47,714 bases of DNA from a virus. Location of the stretch: the UHGV virus genome UHGV-1354603; one strand, written 5' to 3'. Under the pieces are notes generated by a model. It had not been told where the DNA came from, ran no database searches, and saw only the letters and a program-made list of their open reading frames with translations. Positions 10,329 through 45,485 of the stretch are shown in pieces (the first letter of the stretch is position 1; every line of letters begins with the position of its first letter). A program made the position numbers and the translations under genes.

Positions 10329-10366
10329 CAGCTGGAGCGGCCTCCTTTGCTCAGGAGCTATTCAGT

Positions 10367-11675: not shown

Positions 11676-11906
11676 TCAATCAGACTTTTTCGCCACGAAT
11701 CGGATCTCATCTCGGTGCTCAGGCAGCCACCTGCATTTGTTCAGGCACCACCACGGAGTGATGATGAACCGACCATCAGCTTTCGCTTTCCTGTCGGGAT
11801 GAGCACCCGACACGGCACAGTCCAGAGAACACAGCATCAGGGCTTGAACGCGCTCACCGTGTGGGCAACGCAAGTTTTCCTCTTCTTCGGGCATGGGTAG
11901 TGGCAT
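11676..11906 (-). CDS. Cys-rich hypothetical protein; last gene of the late operon.
   Basis: AAGGAGGAA RBS 6 nt before the ATG. Confidence 0.45.
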   Translation of the reverse strand: MPLPMPEEEENLRCPHGERVQALMLCSLDCAVSGAHPDRKAKADGRFIITPWWCLNKCRWLPEHRDEIRFVAKKSD

Positions 11907-11958
11907 GACCTTCCTCCTTGTTTCTAAAGAGTCTAGCCATGCCTACGATTTTTGCAAA

Positions 11959-14854: not shown

Positions 14855-17800
14855 GCCCGCACCCCCGGCATCCCCTCGGCGTCCCACGCTTCAACCATGT
14901 CGGACGTGCGGCGGGAAAATCTGGCGATCTCGGACATGGAAATGAGCATGTCCCGGCGAAGCTGGTAGACTTCCCGCCGCAACGCCTTGACCTCCGCATC
15001 GCTTCCCGAATCGGTGTCAGCCGCCCGGGGCGTCACGCTGCGGAACAGCGCCGCCGTATCCGCCGCCGTGTAGACGCGCCCCGGCTGCGAGAAGTTCACA
15101 AGCTCCGGCCCTTCCTCGCCCACAAGGGACCATCCCGGCAGGGCAAGCCCGCCCCGGGCGAACGCCTTCACTCCGGCCTTGTCGCCGGCCGCATCCAAAA
15201 GCGGCTTCAACTCGGCAATCTGCTTCTCGATTTCCTCAAGCGTCGCGCTCTGGCCCTGAAGCTGCTTGAGCGCCGCGTTCTGGACATCAAGCTGGCCTTG
15301 CAGCGCTTCAAGTTGCTTGTCGGCTGCGGACACCTGCGCACCCGTCGCGTCCTGCGCGGACTTCAACTGTGCGTTCACCGCCCAGAAAGCGTCGAGGTAT
15401 TCTTCTTCCGTCCCCGCCGTCTGCTTCACCAGATCGAGCAGGGAATTGCCCACGCCCGCAAGCTGGCCCGCCGCCTCGGAGTCGCCGCCAAGCGCAAGCC
15501 CGGACAGCCGCCGGAATTCGGCCTGCACCGTTCCGAGGCGGTTCTCCGCGTCGAGGTTGGCGCTCCCGGCAAACAGGTTGTACCGGGATTGACCAAGGCT
15601 CTTGTCGAGCCCTTCCCATGTGCTCTTGAGCGTCTTTGCGGCGGAAAGCTGTTCGTTGATGGCGTTGATCTGCTCCTGTATCGCCTGTTGCTGAAGCTGG
15701 ACCCGCTGCTGTTCCAGCGCGTCCATCTGCGCCTTGAGCGAATCGTATTTTGACTTCGCAGCGTCCTGCGCGGCCTTCGCCGTCTCCGCCGCGTGGAGCT
15801 TCAACAGTTCCGCCACCTGCGCGGAGCCTTCCCCGAACTGTTGGATCGTCTCGCGCAGCTCGTTGGCCTGTGAGATAGCCCGGCCCACCTCGTCGGCATT
15901 GCCGTTCACCGCCGCCCACCGTTGCGCGACGGACTGGTCGAACGAGCGCAGCATTTCCTCCGTGGCCTGTTTCACCACCTCCGCGCGCATGGCCTCGACC
16001 TGCGCAAGCTGCGATTCCGTGGCCCCGATGATCTCAAGCGCCTTCTTGCGCTGGTCCACGGCCTCGTTCGCCGCCTTCACCGCCTGCGCGTAGGCCGAAA
16101 GCGGGTGCAAGGACTCGTCCAGCGTCTTGATGTAGTCGTTGATGAAGGCGTTCCGGTACTCATTGATGAGCCCCGCCGCGTACTGCGCGTTCACGCCGGA
16201 ATCCTTCATGCCCTGCGTCCATGCGTCGAGCTGCGCCTTGGCGGACTGCGCCTGTTGCTCCATCTCGGACAGCGGGCTCTTGATCGCGTCGGTCGCGCTC
16301 TTCACCGCGCTGATTGCGGAAAGCGCCGTGGACGCCTTCTGCAACCCCTCGTCGGTGGTGACGTCGAACGAACTGAAGAACTGCGAAATGCCCGCGTTCG
16401 AAAAAACCTGCTGCGCCACGGCGGTCATCCGATTGCGCATGTCCTTGGCGGCTTCCTCGAGATCTTCCTCGGCCATGCCCTCTTTCCACCACTGGAAGTT
16501 CCACGAGGCGTCGGAGATGCCCCGCCCGGCGGACCATGTGGAAGTTTCCAGACCGGACAGCGCGTTCTGGCGGATCTGCTCAGGCAGCGCCCCGGCAATA
16601 TCCAGAAGGCTCCCGGCGGTCTGGCTGGCGACTTGGGCAATCCCCTGCGCGAACGGCGCGGCCTCGGACTTCCCGGCCCGGTCATACCAGGCCCCGCCCA
16701 TAAAGGCGTCGATGTACGTCTGTTGGTCCCGCGAGAAGCCTACATCCTCCATCTTGCCGTACACGCTGGCGTGCGTCCGCCGACCGCCCCCGAAGAGGGA
16801 ACCGATAGAACCGCCAAAGATGGAACCCAGTGCAGCAAGGCCGCCAGCAACCCACCCCGCAGGGTTCCAGAAGTTTGTCGCCGCCATTGTGCCGAGCACG
16901 GCTGTGGTGCCAAGGCCGCCGACCATAGAACCAATCTGCGAACCCTTGTTGTTCTGCAATCCAAGGAGATTGTTGACATATGGGCTTACAAAAGAGCCAA
17001 TGGACGCGCCTAACGCCGGAGCGCCAAAAGCAGAAGTGAAGGTTCCCGGCGCGGGGGTGGCCGCTGGAGCTGTCCCCGTCACGCCAGCCTTTAAAAGCTC
17101 TGTACCCGCCGCTTCCATGTATCCTGATGTCGTCGAGAACAGGCTTGGAGCGGCCCACGCTGCGGCTTTGTTTATCGCCCCGGTGACGCTTCCGCCGGGG
17201 AGAAACGACGTGCCCATAGACAACAGATCCATGATGCCGCCGGAACCGGAACCACCGGATCCCCCCGCCGCCTGCGCCACGCCGCCCGTGCCGAGCATAC
17301 CGGACACCACACCAGCAATCTGAACCGTGATGGGCCGGGTGATGGCCATATGCATCAAATCGGCAAGGAACGACGCGAACAGCGACTTGAATGAAGACAG
17401 GGACACCTTGCCCGTCTCGATCATCTGCTCCCATGCCGATTTCCAGCCGGAATCCATGCCGGAATAGAGCGAGGAAAAGGCTTCCTCAGCCCCCTTCGCC
17501 GCATCGGTCGCATCGGCCCGGTACTGGAGGAACGCCCGTTGCGCGCCGTCCGCCCAATCGTGGGAGTTCATCAAATCCTTGTACTGCCGCCACGTCTGGA
17601 TGAGGTTTTCCGGGATGTCCGCGTCACGGAAGATTTCCATCTGCTCATCAAGCAGACGGTTCTGCACTTCAAGGGACAGGCCGAACGCCCCGGACATTTC
17701 CTCAAGCTCCTTATAGAAGGAAAGCTTTTCCTGAAGGTGTTCGTTCTGCTCCTTACTGGCCCGCTCGGCCTTGCGGAGAGCCTTTTCATGCTCCGTCTCG

Positions 17801-20157
17801 GCCTTGGTCATGAGCTGTGTGTACTTCGCCGGATCCGTTTTCTTCAGATACTCGACGTTCCGCAGAAACGCCTCATACTCCTTATCAACCTTGGCGACGG
17901 CTGCGGCTGCGGGATCGGCATAGGACAAAATATCCTGCATCCACTTGAAATCGGCCTCCTGCTCCATCGCCTTGCGGAGCTTTTCCATCTCTGCGGTGGG
18001 GAGTTTGGCGTCCTTGGCAATCTTCGCCAGCTTTTCCTCAATCTTGACCTGCTCAAGTTCGCGGCTCGACTGCATGAGCTTGGCAATCTCTTCGTCGTAA
18101 GCGGCAAGAGCCTTGGCAGCACGATTGGCGGCGTCTTCGGCGGATTTCGCGCCTTTATCCATTATACTCTTGCGTTTTTCAGCATAACCAGTTTCAATCT
18201 GAAGCTTTTTTTCTTGATATTCTTTATCGGAAAGGGTCCCCCTCGTATGCCATTCATCCAATTTTTCAAGTGCTTCTTTTTCAGCTTTATCAATAGCTAT
18301 AAGCTTGAACGTTGGAAGATCTTTTGTTGCATCCTTCCATGCATTCATACCGTCTTGTTCAATTTTAAGAGCGCGCTTTACATTGCTTTGATGTTCGGCT
18401 TCATATTCTCTCTGCTTCTGAAGGCGTGCTGCAAGAACAAGATCAATCTGACGATTAGCATTAATGACTGCTTCACCATATTTTTGGACAGCCTCTATTT
18501 CCTGTTCTGTATATGGACCATTCCAATAAGATTGAGTTAATGTCTGTCCAGTTTTATATCCTTTTGAAGACATTTCTTTTATAATATTATTTTTATTTAG
18601 AACATTTTTCGCTTCTTTTAATGCCTCCGTTACGAGATTTATTCCTTGTACGACACTTTCAGTCTGGCTTGCACTAGATTTAAAAAGTTCCCATTCCGTA
18701 CTCAACCTATTGACCGCACCTTGTGCTCCATCAGCAGCTTTCACGGCCTTGTCGCCAAACGTCTCTTGAAGGACTACACCGAGCTTCGGCAACAGATCAT
18801 CTGACATGACTTTGCCTTGCTCGATCATTTTGAACATTTCTTGACGGTTAACTCCCATCGCCTTTGAGACCAACTCAAAAGTCCCCGGAAGCCGTTCGGC
18901 AATCTGGTTCACTTCTTCCATCGAGAGTTTGCCCTTGGAGGCAATCTGAGAAAAAGCAAGAAAGACGCCGGACATTTGCTCTTGGGTCATGGAAAGGGCC
19001 GTACCTGCCGATGTGACCCCCTTGAAAATCTCGTTCATGTCATTTTCAAGACTGGTCCCTACACTAGCGGCAAAAAAGCCCTTCGCAGATTCGGCGGTGG
19101 ACTGGAATTGAAGACCAAGTTTCTGTGTCAGGCCATAGATGTAATCGAGCTGTGTAGTAGCTCCAATGTCCGAGCCCATGACAGTCCGGTAGCTCTTTTG
19201 AAGCCTGTCCATCTGCAACGAAGCATCAAAACAGGCTTTTCCGGCGTAAATCGCTGCCGCTGCAACAGCCGTGATCGTGCCTACCACGGGGAGAGCCGCC
19301 GCCCTGAGCGTCTTGAATGCCCCGCCAGTATCCCCAATCTTCAATTGCAGCTTCGCCATTTCCGCAGCGGACATCCCCGTCTCTTTCCCGATGCGGGCAA
19401 GAGCCTGTTCCATGTCACGCTTTCCCGCGAACTGCGAAGCCTTGGCGGACAGGCGATCAATCTCCTGTGTGGAGAGATTGGTGGCCCGCTGGACGGATGC
19501 AAAAGCCTGCTGGAGGGGCGTCAGTTCTACGGTTGGCGCAATCTTGGTTGCACGGGCTTCGGATGCCAGCCGCTTCAAACTCCCGCGCATGGACTCGGCG
19601 GCACGCTTGACGTCGTTAGCCGTGGCATCCGCGCTGTTCTTCACCTCGCGGTACGACGCCACAATGTCCTTCATCTCGAAAACGATAGCGGAGCGGGAAC
19701 GGGTGTTCAGTGCGCCCATCGCCGCCTTCAGCGCGCCTTGGGTATCGCCGAGTTCCCGCCGAAACCTCGCCATTTCCGCAGTGGACATCCCTGTTTGCTT
19801 CTGGATGTTGGCAAACGCCCTTTCGAGACTGGAATCCCGCGCGACCTTGATCGCCGCTTCGTACATCTTGTCAAGGCCGGAAGCAGAAAGGCCCGCGCTT
19901 TTTGCCAATGCATCAAGCCCTGATACTTTGATGGACGTATTCAGGTGGCTTGCGGCGGCGGAAGCCGTATTGATGCTCTTTGCAAGGTTGGTGAAGCTGG
20001 AACTGATTTTATTGGGAGTAAAGGCCCCGTCAAAGGCTTTGGATGCGATGTCCCCAGCACGCTGTGCTGTGAGCATGAATGCCTTCATGTCCTTCTGGAA
20101 AGGAGAGTCATCAAGCCCAACCGAAAGATAAAGGCCGGATTCTTTTGCAAGAGACAT
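14851..20157 (-). CDS. Tail tape measure protein (1768 aa).
   Basis: Very long coiled-coil Ala/Gln/Glu/Lys-rich protein with Gly-rich TM-like segments, following the G/GT chaperones. Antisense ORFs inside it were ignored. Confidence 0.9.
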   Translation of the reverse strand: MSLAKESGLYLSVGLDDSPFQKDMKAFMLTAQRAGDIASKAFDGAFTPNKISSSFTNLAKSINTASAAASHLNTSIKVSGLDALAKSAGLSASGLDKMYEAAIKVARDSSLERAFANIQKQTGMSTAEMARFRRELGDTQGALKAAMGALNTRSRSAIVFEMKDIVASYREVKNSADATANDVKRAAESMRGSLKRLASEARATKIAPTVELTPLQQAFASVQRATNLSTQEIDRLSAKASQFAGKRDMEQALARIGKETGMSAAEMAKLQLKIGDTGGAFKTLRAAALPVVGTITAVAAAAIYAGKACFDASLQMDRLQKSYRTVMGSDIGATTQLDYIYGLTQKLGLQFQSTAESAKGFFAASVGTSLENDMNEIFKGVTSAGTALSMTQEQMSGVFLAFSQIASKGKLSMEEVNQIAERLPGTFELVSKAMGVNRQEMFKMIEQGKVMSDDLLPKLGVVLQETFGDKAVKAADGAQGAVNRLSTEWELFKSSASQTESVVQGINLVTEALKEAKNVLNKNNIIKEMSSKGYKTGQTLTQSYWNGPYTEQEIEAVQKYGEAVINANRQIDLVLAARLQKQREYEAEHQSNVKRALKIEQDGMNAWKDATKDLPTFKLIAIDKAEKEALEKLDEWHTRGTLSDKEYQEKKLQIETGYAEKRKSIMDKGAKSAEDAANRAAKALAAYDEEIAKLMQSSRELEQVKIEEKLAKIAKDAKLPTAEMEKLRKAMEQEADFKWMQDILSYADPAAAAVAKVDKEYEAFLRNVEYLKKTDPAKYTQLMTKAETEHEKALRKAERASKEQNEHLQEKLSFYKELEEMSGAFGLSLEVQNRLLDEQMEIFRDADIPENLIQTWRQYKDLMNSHDWADGAQRAFLQYRADATDAAKGAEEAFSSLYSGMDSGWKSAWEQMIETGKVSLSSFKSLFASFLADLMHMAITRPITVQIAGVVSGMLGTGGVAQAAGGSGGSGSGGIMDLLSMGTSFLPGGSVTGAINKAAAWAAPSLFSTTSGYMEAAGTELLKAGVTGTAPAATPAPGTFTSAFGAPALGASIGSFVSPYVNNLLGLQNNKGSQIGSMVGGLGTTAVLGTMAATNFWNPAGWVAGGLAALGSIFGGSIGSLFGGGRRTHASVYGKMEDVGFSRDQQTYIDAFMGGAWYDRAGKSEAAPFAQGIAQVASQTAGSLLDIAGALPEQIRQNALSGLETSTWSAGRGISDASWNFQWWKEGMAEEDLEEAAKDMRNRMTAVAQQVFSNAGISQFFSSFDVTTDEGLQKASTALSAISAVKSATDAIKSPLSEMEQQAQSAKAQLDAWTQGMKDSGVNAQYAAGLINEYRNAFINDYIKTLDESLHPLSAYAQAVKAANEAVDQRKKALEIIGATESQLAQVEAMRAEVVKQATEEMLRSFDQSVAQRWAAVNGNADEVGRAISQANELRETIQQFGEGSAQVAELLKLHAAETAKAAQDAAKSKYDSLKAQMDALEQQRVQLQQQAIQEQINAINEQLSAAKTLKSTWEGLDKSLGQSRYNLFAGSANLDAENRLGTVQAEFRRLSGLALGGDSEAAGQLAGVGNSLLDLVKQTAGTEEEYLDAFWAVNAQLKSAQDATGAQVSAADKQLEALQGQLDVQNAALKQLQGQSATLEEIEKQIAELKPLLDAAGDKAGVKAFARGGLALPGWSLVGEEGPELVNFSQPGRVYTAADTAALFRSVTPRAADTDSGSDAEVKALRREVYQLRRDMLISMSEIARFSRRTSDMVEAWDAEGMPGVRA

Positions 20158-20159
20158 AG

Positions 20160-20570
20160 TTATTTCCCCTTTCCGATATGAAGGCCGCGTTCGCGGCTCA
20201 ATGACAGGTCAAACGTCTTAATGAGCTCATTGAGCCTGCGCTTGACCCTGTTCTTGGCTTTACGCATGAAAAACTTTCCCGGCACCTGTTTGACGACTCT
20301 CCCGCCCTTAACGATGGCGTGTCCTTTTTCCAAATACCAAGCATGTGGATTATCAGAATAAATAATATACCCCGTCCCGTACCTCATCTTTGACATTTTG
20401 AAGGATCGGCGCATTTCTCCGGTTTGGTCGTCGAAAAAAGCATTCTTCTTGGTCAATTCTCCCAAGATCTGATCGGCGACCTGATACAGGACACTCTTGA
20501 AAGCCGCATCCGCAACCTGTTTGGTTATTCCGTCCGTATCGAGGGATACGGTGAACTTTGATTTACCCAT
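20160..20570 (-). CDS. HK97 gp10-family protein, second paralog.
   Basis: Aligns by eye with the 28598..28990 product (GYIIYSDNPHAWYLEKGHAIV / GYVVYVKAPHSHLVEFGHAVV; VPGKFFMRKAKN / VPGKHFLRKARN). Confidence 0.6.
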   Translation of the reverse strand: MGKSKFTVSLDTDGITKQVADAAFKSVLYQVADQILGELTKKNAFFDDQTGEMRRSFKMSKMRYGTGYIIYSDNPHAWYLEKGHAIVKGGRVVKQVPGKFFMRKAKNRVKRRLNELIKTFDLSLSRERGLHIGKGK

Positions 20571-20616
20571 GCTTCATTTTCCTTTTTTGGACGGCATGGC
20601 GATTTGCGGATGTTTT

Positions 20617-20668
20617 ATGCGTATTATACGCATTTCACATTGACATTTATACGCATAATGCGTATAAA
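20617..20668 (+). promoter_or_regulatory. hicAB promoter with two nested perfect palindromes (operators).
   Basis: ATGCGTATTATACGCAT (20617-20633) and TATACGCATAATGCGTATA (20648-20666); -35 TTGACA at 20640-20645, 17-nt spacer, -10 TATAAA at 20663-20668; the hicA ATG is only 6 nt downstream. Confidence 0.5.
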
Positions 20669-20674
20669 CAACCC

Positions 20675-20857
20675 ATGACAGCACGGGAACTCATAAAAAA
20701 ACTGGAGGAGGCAGGGTTCACGAACAAAGGGGGAAGCAACCATGACAAGATGGTACACCCTGACGGGAGAGTCACTGTGATTCACAGGCATAAAGGAGAC
20801 ATCCCGCTTGGAACCCTCAAGGCAATCGCAAGGCAAACAAAAATCAAGTTACCTTAA
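20675..20857 (+). CDS. hicA: HicA toxin (mRNA interferase).
   Basis: MTARELIKKLEEAGF...HPDGRVTVIHRHKGDIPLGTLKAIARQ. Confidence 0.75.
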   Translation: MTARELIKKLEEAGFTNKGGSNHDKMVHPDGRVTVIHRHKGDIPLGTLKAIARQTKIKLP

Positions 20858-20892
20858 CCGGATGGGGGGGCAATCCCCCCCGAGGAGAATAT

Positions 20893-21276
20893 ATGCGTTA
20901 TCCCGTTATTGTGCATAAGGATGAAGGCACCGATTACGGCGTGACCGTTCCGGACTTTCCCGGAGTGTTCACTGGAGGTGAAACGCTCGACGAAGCCTTG
21001 AAGAATGTTCAGGAGGCTATTGAGTGCTTCTATGAAGGGGAAGAGGTGGACAGCCTCCCCGAAGCGTCCCCGTTGGAGCGCGTGCTGGCCTCCGAAGACG
21101 CGGAAGGTGGAGCCGTAGTGCTGGTGGATGTGAACTTTGACTTCCTCGAAAAGAAGGCCGTTCCCGTCAACATCACGATGCCCCTGTATGTCAGGAACAG
21201 GATCGACAAGGCGGCAAAAGCCCACGGCTTGACCCGTTCGGCCTTTCTCGTCAAGGCAGCACAAGCCTACGCGTAA
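20893..21276 (+). CDS. hicB: HicB antitoxin.
   Basis: MRYPVIVHKDEGTDYGVTVPDFPG...; C-terminal RHH-like region NITMPLYVRNRIDKAAKAHGLTRSAFL. Confidence 0.75.
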   Translation: MRYPVIVHKDEGTDYGVTVPDFPGVFTGGETLDEALKNVQEAIECFYEGEEVDSLPEASPLERVLASEDAEGGAVVLVDVNFDFLEKKAVPVNITMPLYVRNRIDKAAKAHGLTRSAFLVKAAQAYA

Positions 21277-21301
21277 CAGCAAAGATAAAAATCTGTAACT
21301 A

Positions 21302-21434
21302 ATGGAAGGAAATATGTTTGATGCTGCCATAAACACGGCTTTTAATGCTCTTGGGAATATTCCTACTGTTGCCGCACAAAAAGCGCATCTTGATCTTTTG
21401 CGCGAACGCTTTTCAGTGCTTGAGAACGAACTAG
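21302..21434 (+). pseudogene. 5' fragment of a coiled-coil / zinc-ribbon gene split by the IS insertion.
   Basis: The frame continues exactly into 22272..22594 once the IS and one target-site copy are removed. Confidence 0.55.
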
Positions 21435-21446
21435 GGTCAGGACTCG

Positions 21447-21839
21447 TTAATGAAGATAAAAGATAACACAGACAGCAAGGCAGATGGCTGAGAAAAAGGT
21501 ATGGGCACAGCGGTCATAACGTGTTGCGATACGCCGCCAGTCCTTCAGTTTACTGAACGTATTTTCAATGAGATGCCGACGTTTATACAGCGTTTTGTCG
21601 AAAGGAAAGGCTGTATTTCTGGTTTTCCGAGGAGGTATGCAGACCGTCATCCCCCTCGCTTTCAGAGACTCCCGCAACCAGGCCGCATCATACCCTCCGT
21701 CTGCCAGAAAGGTGCCGTCTTTGGGAAGAAGGTGCTGGAGAATGGCCGCTCCCTTGTAATCGCTGACCTGTCCTTCGGTCAGCAAAAGCAGAACAGGCCG
21801 CCCATGTCCGTCGCAGACTGCATGGAGTTTGGAATTCAA
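21447..21839 (-). CDS. IS transposase orfB (DDE domain), fused to orfA by a -1 frameshift.
   Basis: ADGGYD...HLIENTFSKLKDWRRIATRYDR; the -1 frame read-through from orfA joins ...LNSKLHAVCDG. Confidence 0.75.
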   Translation of the reverse strand: MNSKLHAVCDGHGRPVLLLLTEGQVSDYKGAAILQHLLPKDGTFLADGGYDAAWLRESLKARGMTVCIPPRKTRNTAFPFDKTLYKRRHLIENTFSKLKDWRRIATRYDRCAHTFFSAICLAVCVIFYLH

Positions 21840-21856
21840 TCCGCCCTTTGTCCGGC

Positions 21857-22204
21857 CTATGAGACGCGCGGAGCCCCCTTTTTGCGCAGACTTGCCGCCG
21901 TGCGGTGGGCCTTGAGGTGAGTGGAGTCAATCATCAGCGAGCCATCAAAGGGCGTCTGGTTTGCCAACTCGGTGAAGATCCTGCTGAAAACACCGAGCCT
22001 GCTCCACCTGACGAACCGATTGTACAGTGTCTTGTACGGACCATATTCCGCGGGAGCATCCTTCCACTGAAGTCCATGTTTGATAACGTAAAGAATGCCG
22101 CTGACGACGCGCCTGTCATCGGCACGGGGGATACCGTGAGAGCGGGGAAAGAAAGGGCTGATCCGTTCCATCTGGCTTTCGGAAAGGTAAAACAGGGTAC
22201 GCAT
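21857..22204 (-). CDS. IS transposase orfA (DUF4096-like N-terminal part).
   Basis: ...DDRRVVSGILYVIKHGLQWKDAPAEYGPYKTLYNRFVRW; ends at the slippery A_AAA_AAG site (about 21877-21884). Confidence 0.75.
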   Translation of the reverse strand: MRTLFYLSESQMERISPFFPRSHGIPRADDRRVVSGILYVIKHGLQWKDAPAEYGPYKTLYNRFVRWSRLGVFSRIFTELANQTPFDGSLMIDSTHLKAHRTAASLRKKGAPRVS

Positions 22205-22271
22205 GCGACACCTCCATGTCTTCAGTATACCCTGTTTTCACTTCATTGGGAATAATGAGTCCTGACCCTAG

Positions 22272-22594
22272 GAAAACTGAGGCAGGAATATATTGAACTA
22301 TTGCGAGAAAATAAGGAAATAAAAACGAATCTCGAAAACAAAACCAAGTTGATTGAAGAATTAACATTTAATACAGTATTGGCTGATATTGGACCATGCA
22401 AGATAAAAATTGATACACAAAAAAACATTTTGCCAGGATACTATTGCCCTAAATGCAAGCTTCCTCTTTCCCGTGGAGACTATGACTATCAGAATGACGT
22501 TTTAATATGTCATGGATGCCAAGAGATAAAATTACAAGGCAGAGATGTTGATTCAGCCAAGGAAATCTTTATTCAGACAAGGTTCCAAAAATAG
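22272..22594 (+). pseudogene. 3' fragment of the IS-disrupted gene (coiled coil + CPKC...CHGC zinc ribbon), AT-rich.
   Basis: In frame with 21302..21434 across the IS; the reconstructed product is about 141 aa. Confidence 0.55.
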
Positions 22595-22903
22595 ATTTCA
22601 TTTGCCTATCGTGCCATATGGAAAATACTATAATCCCCGCATAGAATCCGGCAGCGAAGAGAATCACACCAAGAAAAAACCAAAAAACTATAGCCATCTT
22701 TATCTCCATATTTTTTGATAAGCATCAACATAGACACCCTTTCCGGCCGCCTCACCAGCGGCCTTTTTCGTGCCTTCCATACGGCCTCCTTGTTTTTTCG
22801 ATCTCATATAAACAAAAACTTATCTGGTTACGCCCTATCGCCTGCGATTGCCACCCTTGCCGTCCATCCTAAGACATGTCATTTGAGGCGATGGAGGTAC
22901 ATT

Positions 22904-23356
22904 ATGGATTCGAAATTACTTAGATGTCTGTTGCCGATCATCAGAAATGGGCTGCGGCGCGGTGTAGGAATTGAGGATCTTGAAGGGTGCGGTGGATACG
23001 AACAAGTTCAAGATGCTCTTTTCTGGATGGAGGACAAAGGGCTTATCAAAGCTCAGTCCACTGGCGTGCTCGGGAGCTACGGAGACATCTACCAAGCCAC
23101 AATCACGACTCTTGGACAAGATTTTATGGATAACGATTATTCGTTCCCTCTCACTAAAATCGAAGTTACCCTGAACGAAAAACAGCTAGAAGCACTCCTG
23201 CTCATCCTTGTTGAGAAGTTTGGAAAACCCGGTGAAGCGTCCGCTGTCAGACGCCTTTTCGAAAAAGCCGGAAATGCTGGCGTCAATGCCTTGGCTACGG
23301 AGGCGGTCAAGCAGATGCTTGCACACTTGCCGGAAATTGCCAGAACGTTCATGTAG
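22904..23356 (+). CDS. Hypothetical protein.
   Basis: GGAGG RBS; ATG 22904 within ORF 22715..23356; its 3' end overlaps the convergent ORF 23186..23584. Confidence 0.4.
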   Translation: MDSKLLRCLLPIIRNGLRRGVGIEDLEGCGGYEQVQDALFWMEDKGLIKAQSTGVLGSYGDIYQATITTLGQDFMDNDYSFPLTKIEVTLNEKQLEALLLILVEKFGKPGEASAVRRLFEKAGNAGVNALATEAVKQMLAHLPEIARTFM

Positions 23357-23584
23357 AATATTTGCCATGAAGAACGAAACAGCCTGCGGCGTAAGTTGGA
23401 CGCCCTCAAAGTAGTCCACTTTGATAAAGCCGTTCTCCTCAAACTCCCAAAGCGCTTGTTTGAAAAGCTTCCTGTCGCCATCATAGCCGGGAAGCTTTTC
23501 AATAGGTATCGAGTGAGGATACGGAGCTGTCAGTAAAACCGTCCCCCACGCCTCCCAGAGATGGAAAAAATCTTTGCTGTGCAT
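23186..23584 (-). CDS. Hypothetical protein.
   Basis: ORF with plausible composition; overlaps the + strand gene by 170 nt. Confidence 0.35.
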   Translation of the reverse strand: MHSKDFFHLWEAWGTVLLTAPYPHSIPIEKLPGYDGDRKLFKQALWEFEENGFIKVDYFEGVQLTPQAVSFFMANILHERSGNFRQVCKHLLDRLRSQGIDASISGFFEKASDSGRFTGFSKLLNKDEQECF

Positions 23585-23714
23585 ACTAACCTCACTGGTT
23601 GTACTCTATTCCAATAATATCAATATATCAAGATACAGGAATTTCATTACCCACCCAGCCGCCTGTTGACTTTCCCGGCTCCCTGTGGTGTGGGGAGGGT
23701 AGGAGGATCAGACT

Positions 23715-24506
23715 ATGAGAAAACTGATTTTTATTTTGATGACATTTCTACTGGTGCCTTGGGAAAACTGTGTGCTTGCAACGGAAAAAACATCTATTGA
23801 TATTTATTCATTTTCAAAAGCATATTCTTTATTAAAAGTTCCCAATGTTACATTGGAGCGTGATGAATTTGAAAGCAAAAAAGAATTTGAAAAAAGAAAT
23901 AAAGAGTTTATTGAAAAGAGCAAAGAAAAAATTGCTCCTTTTTATATAGAAATTCCAATAAAATTTTGGTGTATCCCCAAAAATAAAAATTATAACATAG
24001 ATACTAAAACTTTTTCTTTTTACATTCCTATGTATTTTTCCAGCCCATATTTTGATTTATCAGAATCAAGAATAGGAAAAAATGCTATTCTACTGTCAGA
24101 AATAGAAAGAAATACAGGTTCATACGATGGAGAAAATGCTTTTGGAGTAAAAAAAACTGTTAATCGGATAGAAAAAGAAGAAGCCTATCTATTCATATCG
24201 AATGAAAAAAATATAAAAAAATACATAGTCAAAGATGGCGTTGATTACTTTATCAAAGTAAACATCAAAAACATTGATTTGGATAGAGCGAAATTTTTGA
24301 AGGACAATTATCAGATCGTTCTTAAGGTAAAACCAGAAAAATATAAAAAATATGGATACATATATGAAAAAATAGATTATAAGCAACCTACACTGTCATC
24401 TCCCGAACAGGTTAAATCTATAGAGAGGACAATAAATGTATCAATCATGGAGATAATGATTTTTTCTGGTTCTGGAGAACTTATTGCATCCCAGAAGATT
24501 CAATAG
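23715..24506 (+). CDS. AT-rich (about 27% GC) secreted Lys/Asn/Ile-rich protein with a signal peptide.
   Basis: AGGAGG RBS; MRKLIFILMTFLLVPWENCVLA signal peptide; very low GC versus the genome. Confidence 0.6.
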   Translation: MRKLIFILMTFLLVPWENCVLATEKTSIDIYSFSKAYSLLKVPNVTLERDEFESKKEFEKRNKEFIEKSKEKIAPFYIEIPIKFWCIPKNKNYNIDTKTFSFYIPMYFSSPYFDLSESRIGKNAILLSEIERNTGSYDGENAFGVKKTVNRIEKEEAYLFISNEKNIKKYIVKDGVDYFIKVNIKNIDLDRAKFLKDNYQIVLKVKPEKYKKYGYIYEKIDYKQPTLSSPEQVKSIERTINVSIMEIMIFSGSGELIASQKIQ

Positions 24507-24803
24507 CCTGTATTGACACTCAACCACTTTCATGCTTTCATGTCCGCAACGGTGCTCGAAAAACACCCCTTGGCGGATAACGCCACCCGACAGATTGGCG
24601 CTTTTTTGTGCCCTTTTCCCAAAGTCAAGATTTCTCTTGGCTGTGTTTTGGGCTATAATTGCATCTTGATGCCGGGTGTGCCCGATATGTCCAAGGCTTC
24701 GGCCTAAAGGCGGGCAGCAGCTCCAAGGGCTGTTTTCGACACCCGGCATTTTCTATTGGGGAAAATGCTTTGTGAACTCTCGAAAAGTTCCCTTGGAGGC
24801 ATT

Positions 24804-25709
24804 ATGACTACTTCCCTTTGCTTCAATGATTTCACCTTCTCCCCCGTCACGCGAGACAACCAGCCGTGGATTCGCGCATCTGAGCTTTCCCGTGCTTTGG
24901 GTTATGGGCGTGAGAACCAAATTTCGCGCTTGTACCGAAGCAACGCTGACGAATTTACCCCGGAGATGACGCAAGTTATTGAAATCGTCGACGGCCCCGA
25001 TTCGGGGCTTTCGGTAACAGCCCGCATCTTCTCCCTGCGCGGCTGCCACCTTCTTGCCATGTTCGCCCGCACGCCCGTAGCCAAGGCGTTTCGTAAGTGG
25101 TGCCTCGATGTCATCGAGCAGTACGGCGACAGGGTGCCCGTTGCCGAGCCCGTGACCATTGACGCCACCCGCCCGTCGCGCCGTACCGACCCTGAACGCA
25201 AGGCGCTCACGGCCATCATCAACACATGGGTGGGCATGGCCCCGATTCACTACGCTTCCGCACGGGCGCAGGTGAACGCGCATTTCGGCGTGGCTTCCGT
25301 TGACGCCCTGACCGTAGCACAGGTTAAGGATGCTATCCGCTGGGTGCAGGGCAAGATCGACGCGCTTCCCACTCTCCCCGCTTCCGCCCCTGCCCGCACG
25401 CTCCCCGTATCCAACATCTGCCGCGACCGGGTGAAGGAGCTGGAACGCCTTGAAGCCAAGTTCATGGAGTTCGCCGGGGAAACCCGTTCCCGCCTCTCCG
25501 AACTCAACGCCGAGTATATCCGGCTGAACCAAGGGTCATTTGCTGCTTTGCTCAGGACACTCCCCGCCGCGCATCCGGGGGATGTTGACAGGCTGTCCAG
25601 CGCGTTGAGCGCCCAGTCCTACGACGCCTACAACTGGATTGACGCCGGGCTGTCGCGCATGAGGCTGGCTATCGTCTCGGCACGGGCCGCAAACAGGATA
25701 ATGGGATAA
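24804..25709 (+). CDS. Bro-N domain protein.
   Basis: FNDFTFSPVTRDNQPWIRASELSRALGY...KAFRKWCLDVI. Confidence 0.7.
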   Translation: MTTSLCFNDFTFSPVTRDNQPWIRASELSRALGYGRENQISRLYRSNADEFTPEMTQVIEIVDGPDSGLSVTARIFSLRGCHLLAMFARTPVAKAFRKWCLDVIEQYGDRVPVAEPVTIDATRPSRRTDPERKALTAIINTWVGMAPIHYASARAQVNAHFGVASVDALTVAQVKDAIRWVQGKIDALPTLPASAPARTLPVSNICRDRVKELERLEAKFMEFAGETRSRLSELNAEYIRLNQGSFAALLRTLPAAHPGDVDRLSSALSAQSYDAYNWIDAGLSRMRLAIVSARAANRIMG

Positions 25710-25716
25710 AAACACA

Positions 25717-25749
25717 GGGCCGGGAACCGAGAGGAACCCGGCCCTTTCC
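25717..25749. terminator. Bidirectional terminator between convergent genes.
   Basis: gggccggg-aaccgagaggaa-cccggccc + TTT. Confidence 0.5.
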
Positions 25750-25791
25750 ATCCGCAAATCGCTATGCCGTTGTCAAAGAACTGTTGATACC

Positions 25792-26622
25792 TTATGCCGT
25801 CATCATGACCGGGCATCTGTTCAAAATCCTGTGCCCGTCAAAGAAAGAGAGTTGGCGGCGCACGCCGTACTTGTCGAGGAAGTGGGCAAACAGGTGGTAC
25901 TGCCCAGCCCCGGTAATCATCGTGGTGACGGTGACGAACTGGTAGCCGTCGTCCGCTTCGGTCATGCGCTCGACCACGCGGAAATAGCCCTTGTCCATCA
26001 TCCGCTGCGTGGGCATGTTCCAGTTGGTTCCCTTACGGCGCATCAGGTAGCCGTCCCTGCGGAGATCGCGGTAGAGACGGTTTGCGCCGATATCCAGCCC
26101 GCGCTGTTTCAGAACCTTGGCAAACTGGTTGATCGAGACGCATTCTTCCGTTTCCATGATCGCTTCGGCAAGCTCGACCTTGGGCGCATCAAGCGCGATT
26201 TGCTCCTGAAGATCGGATACGGCATGGCTGAGCATCCCGAGCCGCCCTTCGGCAATGATGAGGGCCTGAGACAGGATCTCGTCTTCCGTCTGCGGCGCGC
26301 CGTAGTGCCCCGTCTTGCGGATGGAGGGAAGGATTTCTTCGCAAACCCAGTCCTGAAACCGCTCTGCGCTGGGCAGATTCGACCGCATCACGAGGCGGTA
26401 TACGTCGGATTCGGGGATGATGTTGTAGGGCATAGCCCCCTGCGGCGAATTGCCGTAGCTGAATTTATTGAGCTTTTTGCAATGGGCATTCACGGCGTCG
26501 TTGGGGCGTTCATACCCCAACGCCTTCGCAACGTCACTCGCCACGAACCACGGCTGCCCTTCATGCTCGACCACCCGGACATCCCCAAACTCTTTGTTCT
26601 GAAATACCTTCACATCATTCAT
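25792..26622 (-). CDS. Antirepressor (Bro-N + KilA-C-like domains), paralog 1.
   Basis: KVFQNKEFGDVRVVEHEGQPWFVASDVAKALGYERPNDAVNAHCK; the N-terminal region is about 85% identical to the 46835..47611 product. Confidence 0.75.
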   Translation of the reverse strand: MNDVKVFQNKEFGDVRVVEHEGQPWFVASDVAKALGYERPNDAVNAHCKKLNKFSYGNSPQGAMPYNIIPESDVYRLVMRSNLPSAERFQDWVCEEILPSIRKTGHYGAPQTEDEILSQALIIAEGRLGMLSHAVSDLQEQIALDAPKVELAEAIMETEECVSINQFAKVLKQRGLDIGANRLYRDLRRDGYLMRRKGTNWNMPTQRMMDKGYFRVVERMTEADDGYQFVTVTTMITGAGQYHLFAHFLDKYGVRRQLSFFDGHRILNRCPVMMTA

Positions 26623-27217
26623 TGCTTGCTTTCCTTCATAGCTTTTGCGGAGATAGTACGGATAACCGTTTCCACGGCACGCACTTTTCGCCACAGGCCC
26701 GGAGTCATGTCTATGCCGAGCGTTTCAGCCAGCATTGCCAGCGCGTTGTAGTCAAAACCGACTGGCCCGCCCATGCCGGACATGCGGAGCTGGGTAGCAC
26801 CAACTTGGAGCAGTTCCCACGCATCCGCGTTGTCGGGCATGAGATCCGGGCAACGGCCTTCGCAACCTTCGCAGTTCAAAGAATCAGCATTCTGGCTGGC
26901 GGCCTTCCGGCAGGTGTCGCAGTATTCCGCGCCCTCACCGGAAAGCCACTCCCAGACCGCCGCTAGTTTTTTTCTTCTTCCGCCACGCCGAAGGTTTCGT
27001 TCACGATGGCCTTGTGCAGGGCGAGGATGTCGGGGAAGGGCAGTTCGTCCGTCTGGGCCGCGTCGAACCCGGCGACGGTGAACACGGCGTCCATGCCCTC
27101 GGAAATCGAATACCCGCCGCCCATGAGGTCGAAGCCCTGCGCCTTGAGCGCCTTGATGTCCTTGCCTTTGAGCGGGTTCACGATGAAGTCCTGACCGGAA
27201 AGAGTAATGGTACGCAT
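26619..27217 (-). CDS. gpGT-like tail chaperone fusion made by a -1 programmed frameshift.
   Basis: Slippery A_AAA_AAC at 26966-26974 (- strand); the -1 frame stays open to 26619 and encodes KKLAAVWEWLSGEGAEYCDTCRK... Confidence 0.6.
26963..27217 (-). CDS. Tail assembly chaperone (gpG-like).
   Basis: Small acidic protein immediately after the major tail protein; ends at the slippery site. Confidence 0.65.
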   Translation of the reverse strand: MRTITLSGQDFIVNPLKGKDIKALKAQGFDLMGGGYSISEGMDAVFTVAGFDAAQTDELPFPDILALHKAIVNETFGVAEEEKN

Positions 27218-27243
27218 GGTATTTTCCTTTTGATGGTTGATGG

Positions 27244-28221
27244 TTAGTAGGAAGCCACGTCATTGACGACGGTGGCGATGATGCAGGCGTTGTCCGCAGC
27301 ATCGTTGAAGTAGGCAACGAACGGATATTCAGCCTTGACACCAGTGGGACCATCCACGGTGGGACCTTGGAACTGAATCTGTACTTCGGGCATCTTGAAG
27401 GTGATTTTGTTGTTTTCGTCGATACTCCACCCCAGCTCCATGGAGAGTTCCGTATTGTCCTTTGCCTTGTTGAGCAGCGTCATGTTCGTAAACATGGCCG
27501 TCATGCTTCCGGAAACGGACATGAGGCCTTCGGGAATGTCATAGAGTTTACCGGCTGAGCCGAGCGTACGGATGGAGGTATCCAGTCCGTTGTCGATGGT
27601 CAGGCTGAAATCGGTAATGGTGGCAATCGCCACGCCGTCAGATTTCAAGGTCGCCTGAAAGTTACTGAAGCGTTTCATAGTCACAAGTTCGGCGGCGGCA
27701 TTGTAGTTCGTCTGCGAATACTCAACATCGCGCCCCACGAGGTTGACCGTAGCGGTCAGCTCACCATCCCCGCCAGCCTGCATTGCCAGAGAAGACACCT
27801 TGCACCCCGTAAACTTCCCGAAGGTGGCTGGGGTGGTTCCGTATGTGCTCTGGACAATGGCAGAAGGGGCCTCGTCCCCGGGCTTGAATACGTGGGTATA
27901 AGGGGCGGTATCAGGACTTGCGGGAGGAGTGGTTGTAGGAGCACCAAACAGCAGTTTCAACCAGTACGGGAAAGCACGGGCGTCAACCGGGACAGTCAGC
28001 GCGCCTGATACCTCGACATTGCCGTCAAAGGGTTCGGAAGGGTCACGTCGTCCGGTCAGCGTCGCCGCGCTGTTCTTGGCGCGCGATACATTCAGGCCAA
28101 ACGAATTGAGCGGCATGAGCCTTCCTGCCGCGACACCGGGAGCCGTTCCGAAACTTGTTTCAAAATCCAGCAGGCATGTGGTTTTATAGCCACGAGCAAT
28201 CTTTTCGATAGGCATAATCAC
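27244..28221 (-). CDS. Major tail protein.
   Basis: 325-aa protein between the tail terminator and the G/GT chaperones. Confidence 0.6.
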   Translation of the reverse strand: MIMPIEKIARGYKTTCLLDFETSFGTAPGVAAGRLMPLNSFGLNVSRAKNSAATLTGRRDPSEPFDGNVEVSGALTVPVDARAFPYWLKLLFGAPTTTPPASPDTAPYTHVFKPGDEAPSAIVQSTYGTTPATFGKFTGCKVSSLAMQAGGDGELTATVNLVGRDVEYSQTNYNAAAELVTMKRFSNFQATLKSDGVAIATITDFSLTIDNGLDTSIRTLGSAGKLYDIPEGLMSVSGSMTAMFTNMTLLNKAKDNTELSMELGWSIDENNKITFKMPEVQIQFQGPTVDGPTGVKAEYPFVAYFNDAADNACIIATVVNDVASY

Positions 28222-28224
28222 TCC

Positions 28225-28623
28225 TTATTCTGTTTCGAGGAACCAGACCTTGTACTCCATGCTCACGCGGAAGTAGTTGGTCCCGTCCTCGTACAAGTCT
28301 TGATCCTCAATCAGATGCGCTCCGAACACAGTGCCGCTCGGCGGCATGGCGGCGCGCACGGCCTTGGCAATGGCTTTCGCCTCGCCGTAGTTCTTCGCCC
28401 ACACGTCGATCTGGAGGTCAATTTCCTCCAGCCCGGACGCCCCGGACAGCGTATTTGCGGGCATCCCGCCGAGCCGCTGGAACGTGATGCACGGAAGCTT
28501 GGTTCCCTGCGGGATGACCAGCGCGAAGACATTGTTCCCCACCAGTGCAGACACCCCCGCGTCTTCCCGTAGCGTCCGCAGCAGGACGATTTCAAAATCA
28601 ACGGCGCTTGCCATAGTGGGCAT
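28225..28623 (-). CDS. Tail terminator / tail completion protein (DUF3168-like).
   Basis: Position and size; placed immediately upstream of the major tail gene in the HK97-like order. Confidence 0.45.
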   Translation of the reverse strand: MPTMASAVDFEIVLLRTLREDAGVSALVGNNVFALVIPQGTKLPCITFQRLGGMPANTLSGASGLEEIDLQIDVWAKNYGEAKAIAKAVRAAMPPSGTVFGAHLIEDQDLYEDGTNYFRVSMEYKVWFLETE

Positions 28624-28990
28624 CTCCCATCATTTCTTGAAGCATCGCATCAACTTTCCGACGGACGGCGTTGCGGGCCTTGCGGAGAAAATGCTTGCCG
28701 GGAACCCGGTGTTCAAGGACTTTCCCGTCTTTGGTCACCACGGCGTGCCCGAACTCCACAAGGTGGCTGTGCGGGGCCTTCACATAGACTACATAGCCGC
28801 CGTCCTTGTACTTCGAGCGGTAAATCCAGATGGATTGCCGCAGCCTCCCCGTCTTGTCCCTGAACGCCGTGGAGCTTTTGGCCTTCTCAAAGACCTGCGC
28901 GGCAATGCCTCCCAAATCGGAATCAATCTCCACCCGGACGCCCGCCCGGATGTCTTCGATGGGAATATCCACCACGACGTCATTGCTCAT
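28598..28990 (-). CDS. HK97 gp10-family protein.
   Basis: Family-typical ...GYVVYVKAPHSHLVEFGHAVV...VPGKHFLRKARNAV. Confidence 0.6.
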   Translation of the reverse strand: MSNDVVVDIPIEDIRAGVRVEIDSDLGGIAAQVFEKAKSSTAFRDKTGRLRQSIWIYRSKYKDGGYVVYVKAPHSHLVEFGHAVVTKDGKVLEHRVPGKHFLRKARNAVRRKVDAMLQEMMGDAHYGKRR

Positions 28991-29309
28991 TGCTCACCTC
29001 CCGGCACATCAACACCAGTTCCCGACCCCGGTTGTCCTGCAGCGGGGCAACGATGTTGAACACCTTCCCGTTGTGAGTGACGCGCATGTCCGCCGTCACG
29101 TCCGGCCTGTACCGGATGCGGATACGCTGCGTGACTTCGGACTGTGTCTGTTGGCTGGCGAAAAACTCCCGCCCGCTCATGGCTTCCAGCGAAGCCCAGA
29201 CGATCGCCACGTCTTCCCATGGCGCATCACCTATTGCAGCTCCATAATCGTCTACGGCCACAATCTTTTTCTGGAGCGTCACGCGGTGGCGAAGCATTCC
29301 CGAGCGCAT
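28980..29309 (-). CDS. Head-tail adaptor (head closure) protein.
   Basis: MRHRVTLQKKI...APWEDVAIVWASLEAMSGREF...RIRIRY typical of head-tail joining proteins. Confidence 0.6.
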   Translation of the reverse strand: MRSGMLRHRVTLQKKIVAVDDYGAAIGDAPWEDVAIVWASLEAMSGREFFASQQTQSEVTQRIRIRYRPDVTADMRVTHNGKVFNIVAPLQDNRGRELVLMCREVSNEQ

Positions 29310-29899
29310 CAGACCACCCCTGTAACGATGTAGGGATCAAGGAGGCTGTCAACAAAACCGTGTCCGAATTCGTTGAAATTCGCGCCCACGGTAAAGCTCT
29401 CTCGTTGTTCGTACAGCGTCCCGATACGCACCAGCATCCACTGTTTCAGGGCCTGTGGGATGAAATCGGCTGCCCACCCCGCAGTCAGTACAACGTCAAC
29501 ACTCCCCCGTGCCGGAAATCCGTGCAGGGGAGTAAGCGAGGCCAAAAGGGGAGCCTCATTTCCGCCATTGCCGCTAGGGGTGAAGGCGTACAGGGATGCC
29601 TCCAGAGGTTCTCCATCCACAGATACGGACAGACAGGCAGAGCAAGGTGCAAGAGGAACGGGAAGCACTGCGCCAAGAGGGAACTCCCCTTCAACGCGCC
29701 ATGTCCATGTCGAAGCACGGAGAACACGCCCCGTCTTGCGCTCGGCGTGCTGCCTTGCCGCAGTAATGAGGCAGGACAGCAACGTATCTTCCTCGTTTCC
29801 CGTATCGATACGGCAATACAGCTTGGCTTCTTCCAGCGTCACCGGCTCAAAGTCGGCATCCGTGGTGCACCGCAAAAACGTCGTTCCGAACCTTTGCAT
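29309..29899 (-). CDS. Head-tail connector (gp6-like / DNA packaging QLRG family).
   Basis: LEEAKLYCRIDTGNEEDTLLSCLITAARQHAERKTGRVL. Confidence 0.6.
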   Translation of the reverse strand: MQRFGTTFLRCTTDADFEPVTLEEAKLYCRIDTGNEEDTLLSCLITAARQHAERKTGRVLRASTWTWRVEGEFPLGAVLPVPLAPCSACLSVSVDGEPLEASLYAFTPSGNGGNEAPLLASLTPLHGFPARGSVDVVLTAGWAADFIPQALKQWMLVRIGTLYEQRESFTVGANFNEFGHGFVDSLLDPYIVTGVV

Positions 29900-29950
29900 G
29901 GGTGTTCCTCTTGGCTGCCCGGCACGTTTTCATGCCGGGCAGCGGCATCG

Positions 29951-30418
29951 TTAATCCACGATCACGCTGGAGCCGTGGTAGCGTTCTCCGGTGACGATGT
30001 ACGTTGCGGAAATGATGTTTGCGGCGTTGCTGGCTCCGGCCTTGAGGCACAGGCAGTCAAAACCGCCGTTGGTGTCCAGCGTGTCCACATCCACTTCAAA
30101 AACGACCAACTTTTCCTTGGTGGTTTCGTCAGTGGTGAAGGATACGGCGTCCGCCTGGCGCACCCACAAATCGGAAGTTGAAGCGTCGGCAACCAGATAC
30201 ACGGGGACTGCTTCCGTGATGGCTTTCGATCCGGTTCCGGCAACGGCCTTGGCCTGTTCAAGGGTTAGGGCGACAGTCGCCGCGTTCCCCTGATTGACGT
30301 GCGCCAGCACCGTGACGTGGGTAGCTCCCTTGAGGCAGATGTAGTCCCCAGCAACGGCACTTCCCCCGGCCTGAGGCTTGAAAGCAGAGACGATATGGGC
30401 ATTTTCAACGATATTCAT
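29951..30418 (-). CDS. Hypothetical structural protein (possible capsid decoration).
   Basis: Position between the major capsid and the connector; no recognised motif. Confidence 0.35.
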   Translation of the reverse strand: MNIVENAHIVSAFKPQAGGSAVAGDYICLKGATHVTVLAHVNQGNAATVALTLEQAKAVAGTGSKAITEAVPVYLVADASTSDLWVRQADAVSFTTDETTKEKLVVFEVDVDTLDTNGGFDCLCLKAGASNAANIISATYIVTGERYHGSSVIVD

Positions 30419-44801: not shown

Positions 44802-44833
44802 AAATCCCCGCCGGAGCGGGGAAGGAGAAAGAA

Positions 44834-45478: not shown

Positions 45479-45485
45479 GTGAAAC

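Follow-up and report, generated by a model that had tools for sequence, protein, structure and literature searches.

The virus genome UHGV-1354603 was analysed over its whole stretch of 47,714 nt, hereafter called the window, and belongs to an HK97-like temperate siphophage, probably of Bilophila, a gut bacterium. Its head and tail genes are encoded on the minus strand, the late strand, and within this late operon an interval (20160-26622) lies between the genes for the tail assembly chaperones (G and its frameshift product GT) and the gene for the tape measure protein (TMP). The interval contains a second tail-completion gene (gp10b), a hicAB toxin-antitoxin pair, a zinc-ribbon gene split by an insertion sequence (IS), further cargo genes, an antirepressor gene, and two complementary arms, A and B, that form an inverted-repeat bracket. 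We consider it probable that the interval is a multi-cassette hotspot for morons (accessory genes) at the junction of GT and TMP, grown by insertions inside the bracket, and we favour a helix formed by the arms in the late transcript. An original prediction, made from the letters of the window, had described such an island, and every gene that it had placed there is present at that position and on that strand. The features are collected in Table 1, in which, as throughout, L-numbers designate related contigs.

Table 1. Features of the interval and of the surrounding late operon, with positions in the window.
Feature	Position	Strand	Basis or remarks
gp10b, second tail-completion (HK97 gp10/Neck1) paralogue	20160-20570	-	2-nt gap to the TMP ATG; outside the arms
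Arm A	20591-20612	+	arm A', its late-strand complement, stops 20 nt short of the gp10b ATG
hicAB toxin-antitoxin cassette	20617-21276	+	hicA 20675-20857, hicB 20893-21276
Coiled-coil and zinc-ribbon gene, third gene after hicAB, 151 aa when intact, split by the IS	21302-22594	+	intact copy in L001 (14605-15060)
IS5-family insertion sequence, intact, 833 bp	21435-22267	-	DUF4096 and DDE_Tnp_1; terminal inverted repeats GGTCAGGACTC
Terminator-like hairpin closing the hicA-hicB-zinc-ribbon unit	22745-22773	+	sequence
Cassette of 818 bp found in this window only	22798-23615	both	open reading frames 22904-23356 (+) and 23186-23584 (-)
Conserved 5' element (TTGACT ... GGGGAGGGTAGGAGGA ... ATG) ahead of whichever envelope-protein cassette is present	23616-23714	+	alignment
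Low-GC (~28%) gene of a swappable envelope-protein cassette; product of 263 aa, signal-peptide-like segment at its N-terminus	23715-24506	+	open reading frame, composition
Bro-N domain gene, 301 aa	24804-25709	+	Pfam, PHROG
Intrinsic-terminator-like hairpin (GGGCCGGG...CCCGGCCC then TGTGTTTTTAT)	25706-25744	-	4 nt past arm B; GC-rich, U-tract
Arm B (ACGGCATAGCGATTTGCGGATG on the late strand)	25749-25770	-	21 nt past the antirepressor stop
Antirepressor (Bro-N and KilAC/ANT)	25792-26622	-	Pfam, PHROG; ATG overlaps the GT stop as ATGA
TMP, 1768 aa, type I N-terminus (MSLAKESG...)	14851-20157	-	Pfam TMP_3 and Tape_meas_lam_C
T part of the GT frameshift product, -1 frame	26619-26972	-	DUF1799 (Pfam PF08809, E = 5.4e-7)
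Tail assembly chaperone G	26963-27217	-	open reading frame between tube protein and TMP; ends TAG
Tube protein	27244-28221	-	late operon
Tail terminator	28225-28623	-	late operon
gp10a, tail-completion gene	28598-28990	-	canonical place between head-closure and terminator genes; Pfam PF04883, 35.2 bits
Head closure	28980-29309	-	late operon
Connector	29309-29899	-	late operon
Capsid	30431-31714	-	late operon

Gene content of the interval

The guanine-cytosine (GC) content falls to 29-36% at 23501-24500 and to 43-44% at 22001-23000, against 57-67% in the flanks. Next to arm A stands the hicAB pair, recognized by its Pfam matches to HicA_toxin (54.2 bits, cut-off 27) and HicB_lk_antitox (121.1 bits, cut-off 27), with the toxin gene first and the two genes 35 nt apart. 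A consensus promoter of its own had been ascribed to the pair; the pair and the -35 hexamer TTGACA (20640-20645) stand, whereas the candidate -10 hexamer that follows after a 17-nt spacer is TATAAA (20663-20668) and not the full consensus. Two perfect palindromes (20617-20633 and 20648-20666) overlap this candidate promoter, which fits putative autoregulatory operators of the kind expected in a HicAB type II toxin-antitoxin system. The hicA ATG is found just 6 nt past the -10 hexamer and has no Shine-Dalgarno sequence (20663-20677), so the hicAB mRNA may be leaderless.

Downstream of hicB, the interruption of a zinc-ribbon gene by an IS, as originally proposed, was verified in L001, which holds both the intact gene and the empty target site. 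Indeed, the 54-codon open reading frame after hicB and the separate zinc-ribbon reading frame of the window correspond in this relative to one 151-aa gene (99.9% flank identity), and the insertion must be recent because the near-identical L001 keeps an uninterrupted target. The element is flanked by a CTAG target duplication (21431-21434 and 22268-22271), and its terminal repeats reach 19 nt when CTAG is counted. A -1 frameshift at CAAAAAG joins orfA and orfB into a transposase of 245 aa. The features shown are those of the IS5 family only; the size and ends of the element are presumably compatible with the IS427 group, the narrower label that it had been given. Homologues of the zinc-ribbon gene occupy accessory spots in unrelated phages, including another island between chaperone and TMP genes.

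The remaining genes also agree with what had been predicted. The two overlapping convergent genes were found within the 818-bp cassette, where only that on the plus strand has a family match (PHROG_3983, E = 1.6e-7); the two reading frames were compared and are not paralogues. The secreted protein has the low GC content and the signal-peptide-like N-terminus expected of it, and the domains of the antirepressor and of the Bro-N protein were both recovered. Similarly, the 300-nt leader of the Bro-N gene (24507-24803) is structured, as it folds better than shuffled sequence (z = -3.24). Compared with L002, the C-terminal half of the Bro-N gene is 98.5% identical and its N-terminus has diverged. 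The envelope-protein cassettes share a common 5' element and even their first codons (MRKLI) are alike, and a hairpin equivalent to that at 22745-22773 stands before this element in L001 and L002. When the cargo genes were searched with PADLOC, no known defence system was found beyond a weak HicA-like match (E = 0.0014); coiled-coil matches to LmuB/PbeC, also returned, were regarded as spurious.

A variable slot at the chaperone-TMP junction

About 45 related contigs were gathered and classed by the content of their GT-TMP junction. The empty site is represented by ten distant relatives (GT identity 56-60%), whose TMP gene begins at the GT stop. L004-type phages harbor at this junction a single small antisense gene for a secreted protein, and L003 a terminator and a gp10-like gene. 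Antisense cargo is always present in the clade of the window and differs in content; it amounts to 0.4-3.7 kb in closer relatives, and the island of the window, with 5.1 kb between the arms, is the largest seen. At its smallest, the slot content is a single membrane protein of 78 aa, and at its largest seven genes; also seen in the clade are a double-zinc-ribbon membrane protein, a protein of 200 aa whose N-terminus has a hydrophobic segment, a zinc-ribbon/YbjQ protein, a protein of 163 aa and multi-gene islands of 2.2-3.7 kb. With an empty site in ten relatives and different cargo in others, the comparison upholds the view that the interval is an accessory hotspot and not a conserved core of the tail module.

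Exchange is visible at a fine scale, as phages with 93-99% identical tube proteins still differ cassette by cassette. In L001, a lipoprotein replaces the 263-aa protein, and both the IS and the 818-bp segment are missing; the latter is absent from every other locus examined as well, and the left flank of L001 is otherwise 99.8% identical to that of the window. L002-type phages have no antirepressor, and the 263-aa protein gives way in them to a membrane zinc-ribbon protein and a secreted protein. Exactly at the hicAB position, they have a RelE/ParE toxin and its antidote (TIGR02683/TIGR02684), and a RelE/ParE pair holds this position in L002, L010, L011 and L060. Homologues of the 263-aa protein (86-87%) with the conserved 5' element were identified in a Mu-like phage and in another island variant. 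A metagenome scan returned L002-type loci only, and scans with gp10b and with the TMP-start pattern yielded no new contigs. Candidates for exclusion or defence functions in a gut bacterium of clinical relevance are offered by the toxin-antitoxin and envelope-protein cassettes that are exchanged here.

The Mu-like phage, L057, presents the conserved 5' element twice in tandem (4849-4914 and 5466-5530), ahead of a 171-aa gene and of the homologue of the 263-aa protein, in an array that follows a Mu F-like head gene and is itself followed by a Bro-N gene. Since this phage carries both the element array and a Bro-N gene, the same cassette set is common to unrelated phages.

A TMP gene directly after G/GT had been taken as the norm for HK97-like phages, a premise that fails for HK97 itself, which has its moron at this place (PMC3594210). 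Gene 15 of HK97, located between the chaperone and tape measure genes, was the first moron, the term having been coined for it, and its product is a small envelope protein that excludes superinfecting phage (Juhala et al., 2000; Cumby et al., 2012; PMC3594210). The site in the window is identical, and so is the general design: an optional gene for a small envelope protein, control signals of its own and a terminator immediately ahead of TMP. However, HK97 has one gene on the tail-gene strand, whereas the cargo here is antisense, amounts to as many as seven genes or 5.1 kb, varies by exchange between relatives and stands between conserved complementary arms. The location is thus the classical moron site rather than an unusual one, the hotspot is a kind of feature already known, and the island as first described would be a good but ordinary example of it. 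According to a later paper (PMC10884400, citing Rousset et al., 2022), unrelated cassettes, including toxin-antitoxin systems, are likewise exchanged at fixed backbone positions between close relatives in the defence hotspots of P2/P4-type phages and satellites. What is new in the window and its clade is a conserved complementary bracket with an internal late-strand terminator, together with a tail-completion paralogue tied to the TMP N-terminus. To our knowledge, the P2/P4-type hotspots lie between operons or near att or cos sites and not within a tail operon, and no complementary bracket has been described for them.

Complementary arms and their possible action

The arms form an inverted repeat of 22-24 nt (22 nt in the window), and the arm sequence occurs only twice in the 47.7 kb of the window, where none would be expected by chance. 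Both arms and the hairpin were found in every clade locus with enough sequence, at inter-arm distances of 413-5136 nt, the hairpin being conserved in L001, L002, L007 and all other clade members. In relatives, arm B is located 14 nt after the GT stop and arm A' ends 19 nt before the TMP start; in the simplest of them, the 5' element of the cargo gene directly adjoins arm A and the hairpin abuts arm B. Because these simple relatives show their cargo within the same frame of arms and hairpin, the island of the window arose by insertions inside the bracket. Position 20612, the inner edge of arm A, is precisely where homology with L002-type phages ends. The same cassettes carry no arms in other phages, including the Mu-like one; since the arms do not travel with the cassettes, they are part of the backbone. 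No bracket was detected by a seed search of the distant relatives, and the HK97 moron is also without a flanking inverted repeat. When the hairpin at 25706-25744 is read on the plus strand, it follows the Bro-N stop and its U-tract is weak.

The antirepressor, found only in the window and in L001 and absent from L002-type phages and all other relatives, was inserted in line with the late-strand genes beyond the arms and is not slot cargo. A second antirepressor paralogue (Bro-N and KilAC, 258 aa) is encoded near the right end of the window (46835-47611, plus strand) and shows about 82% DNA identity over 280 nt to part of the in-line antirepressor of L001 (L001 11615-11898).

The pairing of the arms was assessed over 25 column pairs in 11 arm types, with controls in which the partner was slid: 93.6% of the cells are paired, against 33-48% in the controls. 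Arm B is invariant and arm A' has at least 13 variable sites among these types, ten of the column pairs varying on one side only and yet remaining paired as G.U. Relative to the other types, both arms of the window, L001 and L002 types lack 2 nt, the positions being mirrored. Predicted duplex energies range from -40 to -46 kcal/mol over 22-24 bp, and the arm helix appears in both the minimum free energy and the centroid folds of the 541-nt RNA of L026 (z = -4.7), as does the terminator hairpin. Taken as comparative evidence, selection on arm complementarity appears well supported, and a long-range RNA helix between the arms is the favoured but unproven level of action.

Several candidate functions of the region as promoter were rejected. 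Sigma-54-like promoters in the arms would have the wrong spacing of their GG/GC pairs (11-13 nt, not 10), and no acceptable -10 hexamer follows the TTGACA-like hexamers beside the arms. Likewise, TATAAT at 20623-20628 on the late strand is not conserved in relatives and was dismissed as a general TMP promoter.

A history of the slot may be proposed from these comparisons. GT and TMP would have abutted in the ancestral state. The slot of the clade would then read on the late strand as GT stop, arm B, terminator hairpin, antisense cargo, arm A', ribosome-binding site and TMP. In the simple relatives, the slot contains a lone antisense gene whose product is a small envelope protein and which the 5' element beside arm A would drive. 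The island would have grown by serial insertion of self-contained units inside the bracket, namely the Bro-N gene beside the hairpin, the swapped low-GC secreted-protein cassette, the 818-bp cassette, the hicA-hicB-zinc-ribbon operon beside arm A and, last, the IS. Two in-line additions would have been made outside the bracket: the antirepressor after GT, and gp10b, arriving with a different TMP N-terminus. In the lysogen, the cargo would be expressed from its own promoters and would serve toxin-antitoxin or defence and envelope or exclusion functions.

With the slot filled, TMP could presumably be transcribed in a conserved way only by reading through the hairpin, and the arms would pair as a long-range helix of 22-24 bp in such read-through late transcripts. 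This helix might set the GT stop beside the ribosome-binding site of TMP or gp10b; alternatively, as a two-turn double-stranded RNA typical of RNase III substrates, it might allow the antisense cargo RNA to be excised. We would give such an RNA-level step on its own, be it a helix bringing the GT end to the TMP or gp10b start or an RNase III site, nearly but not quite an even chance. That the arms are an RNA bridge re-joining the chaperone and TMP cistrons across an exchangeable antisense slot, through coupling or through excision of the cargo RNA, is put forward tentatively, as a possibility that we hold to be rather less probable than its contrary. The suggestion that the interval affects TMP transcription is plausible on sequence grounds, and the inverted-repeat bracket and the late-strand terminator, neither of which the original prediction had mentioned, are the features that bear on it. 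An RNA bridge, if real, would account for the tolerance of an essential, stoichiometry-sensitive operon towards antisense cargo of any size, up to kilobases, and would offer a natural payload site for phage engineering.

RNase III processing stems flank 16S and 23S rRNA, and phage T7 also has RNase III sites. They share with the arms a helix of about 20 bp or more that joins distant sites on one transcript and encloses a large excisable segment; here, however, the cleavage is only predicted, what is enclosed is antisense cargo RNA and the loop contains a terminator. Correia elements of Neisseria are also inverted repeats, with a transcript that is a substrate of RNase III and possible promoter elements at their ends (PMC2649163). 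On the contrary to the arms, which stay put at a single backbone locus and enclose 0.4-5 kb, they are mobile multi-copy miniature inverted-repeat transposable elements of 100-150 bp.

Several observations count against the helix and the proposed history. No two-sided compensatory substitution occurs among the 11 arm types, arm B never varying, and the one-sided changes are compatible with the late strand at 10 sites and not at 3 (p ~0.05), a bias that mutation could also produce. A constant A.C mismatch is present in all arm types. A deletion of 8 nt in L072 (7393-7445), which may be natural or may stem from misassembly, costs arm B its 3' end (GCGGATGG) and reduces the predicted helix to about 16 bp, and L004-type phages tolerate an antisense moron without arms. 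Moreover, a helix spanning 0.4-5 kb must form after terminator read-through, in competition with translation and with sense-antisense pairing. The promoter and terminator calls are themselves predictions, and the conserved 5' element offers only the -35-like TTGACT, with no convincing -10 hexamer.

The arms could instead act at the DNA level, as the crossover sites of an invertible segment, as the terminal repeats of a mobile cassette or as paired sites for one DNA-binding protein, a view that we find unlikely. An inverted repeat of 22-24 bp around a promoter-containing segment does resemble invertons and transposon ends; yet all of the roughly 34 contigs present a single orientation, with the hairpin beside GT and antisense cargo (a minority form might escape notice in assemblies), a target-site duplication is lacking, and no invertase was found among the island reading frames and the 40 window reading frames scanned, a subset of the total, in which the recombinases are the integrase (10265-11461) and the IS transposase. 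New cassettes tend toward the inner edge of arm A, in keeping with this view, but the arms are found at this locus only and the same cassettes stand without them in the Mu-like phage. The matching 2-nt length change would fit concerted evolution of two DNA sites, and the RNA-strand asymmetry is only marginal; in every lineage, however, the arms differ in a fixed manner (A versus G at one position), which argues against frequent conversion.

Another reading grants the complementarity no present function and sees in it a relic of how the slot first arose, perhaps by an insertion into the loop of an ancestral hairpin, kept since then by linkage to conserved flanks. Linkage could account for arm B, which lies within a stretch of about 75 nt that is invariant anyway, but hardly for arm A', in which 93.6% of the cells remain paired in spite of at least 13 variable sites and beside which the spacer before the ATG diverges freely. 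The matching 2-nt indel in both arms would also be very unlikely without constraint. Weighed against the survival of L072 with a truncated arm and against the armless moron insertions that function at this site in L004-type phages and HK97, these observations leave the relic, in our opinion, quite improbable, and a helix in the late transcript is preferred.

A possible parallel to the bracket was noticed in L094, an unrelated siphophage with an antisense island between chaperone and TMP genes. There, a perfect 15-nt inverted repeat (4961-4975 and 7615-7629) brackets 2.6 kb, and one of its arms comes right after a terminator-like hairpin (7581-7613).

The second tail-completion gene and genome-wide observations

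The gp10b protein matches PHROG_5, "tail completion or Neck1" (E = 3.6e-13), and is 33-38% identical to gp10a-type proteins (E ~1e-15). Its gene forms a tandem with TMP, at a 2-nt gap, in all five sequence types that carry it (64-99% identity), including L002, L009, L010 and L011. From gp10b through the first 143 TMP codons, the window is 97% identical to L002, against about 39% for the rest of TMP. Among 10 loci, TMP N-termini of type I occur only with gp10b and those of type II only without it, with 32-41% identity between the two types. In L003, the sole gp10-like gene is found at this TMP-adjacent position. The original prediction had listed among the island genes a second gp10-family gene abutting TMP; the gene and its close spacing were retrieved, but it is not cargo, being located outside the bracket and tied to the type of TMP N-terminus. 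These comparisons indicate that gp10b is a tail-completion paralogue inherited with the type I TMP N-terminus. The simplest reading would be that this N-terminus and its matching partner were imported together, and that the canonical gp10a was left in place.

Both gp10a and gp10b match the tail-completion family of lambda gpZ, SPP1 gp16.1, HK97 gp10 and 80alpha gp51. In 80alpha, gp51 forms a beta-sheet with the N-termini of three TMP chains (PMC11661146), a contact that fits the linkage of gp10b; the present case differs in having two paralogues per genome, the second of them directly upstream of TMP. It is unlikely, in our view, that gp10b is instead one more redundant cargo gene, a stray duplicate without specific link to TMP. 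The canonical gp10a is indeed retained, 85-93% identical to that of relatives that manage without gp10b, and gp10b scores below the cut-off of Pfam PF04883 (17.5 bits against 21.4). Its AlphaFold2 model (mean predicted local distance difference test score 41.6) is too poor for a fold search, and the order of its secondary-structure elements is compatible with the family fold, in which long helices at both termini accompany a beta-hairpin loop. A stray duplicate would, however, leave several facts without account: a late-strand position beyond the arms and 2 nt ahead of the TMP ATG in each of the five sequence types, the block of 97% identity to L002 next to a TMP remainder at about 39%, the perfect co-occurrence with type I N-termini over the 10 loci, the lone gp10-like gene of L003 at this very position, and the binding of TMP N-termini by the family in 80alpha (PMC11661146). 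The gp10b-TMP module would provide a genetic test of the contact between tail-completion protein and TMP N-terminus, which so far comes from one cryo-EM structure only.

Mosaicism is also seen in the neighbouring tail genes. The TMP gene includes a stretch of 43-44% GC (18000-19000) within a gene of 56-67% GC, and its segments match differing relatives at 76-94%, other segments reaching only 30-40%. The gp10a region (28615-28983) is a replacement block, without nucleotide homology to L001 (42% protein identity) between two flanks that are 93-94% identical. Similarly, G is 100% identical to that of simple-slot relatives (L026 type) and only about 50% identical to that of L001, although the tube protein of L001 is 99% identical; these values point to fine-scale mosaicism.

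The assignment of G and GT holds because a slippery heptamer (A_AAA_AAC, 26966-26972), directly 5' of the G stop, ends G and the -1 frame runs into DUF1799. The phage is temperate, since a tyrosine integrase, Rha, a CII-like protein, a Mor-family activator and DnaB are encoded elsewhere in the window. Its sole named relative is a contig from a Bilophila metagenome-assembled genome. A megablast search of positions 14000-30000 against phage and E. coli collections gave no match, Rfam searches (gathering threshold and E <= 1) no family in the island or the window, and a tRNA search no tRNA.

The integrase gene (10265-11461) is located mid-window (10265-12400), between the early genes and the distal tail genes, and the window for this reason appears to read across the attachment site, like an excised or circularly permuted genome and not like an integrated prophage. 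An exact copy of the 84-aa G protein is indexed in 6994 public assembly blocks, including contigs of up to 3.2 Mb, so the phage family must be very widespread as prophage. Further accessory genes are likely represented by a pentapeptide-repeat protein of 201 aa in the early region (3150-3755, plus strand) and by a block of 26-31% GC (45001-46000) with three unannotated plus-strand open reading frames (44055-46004).

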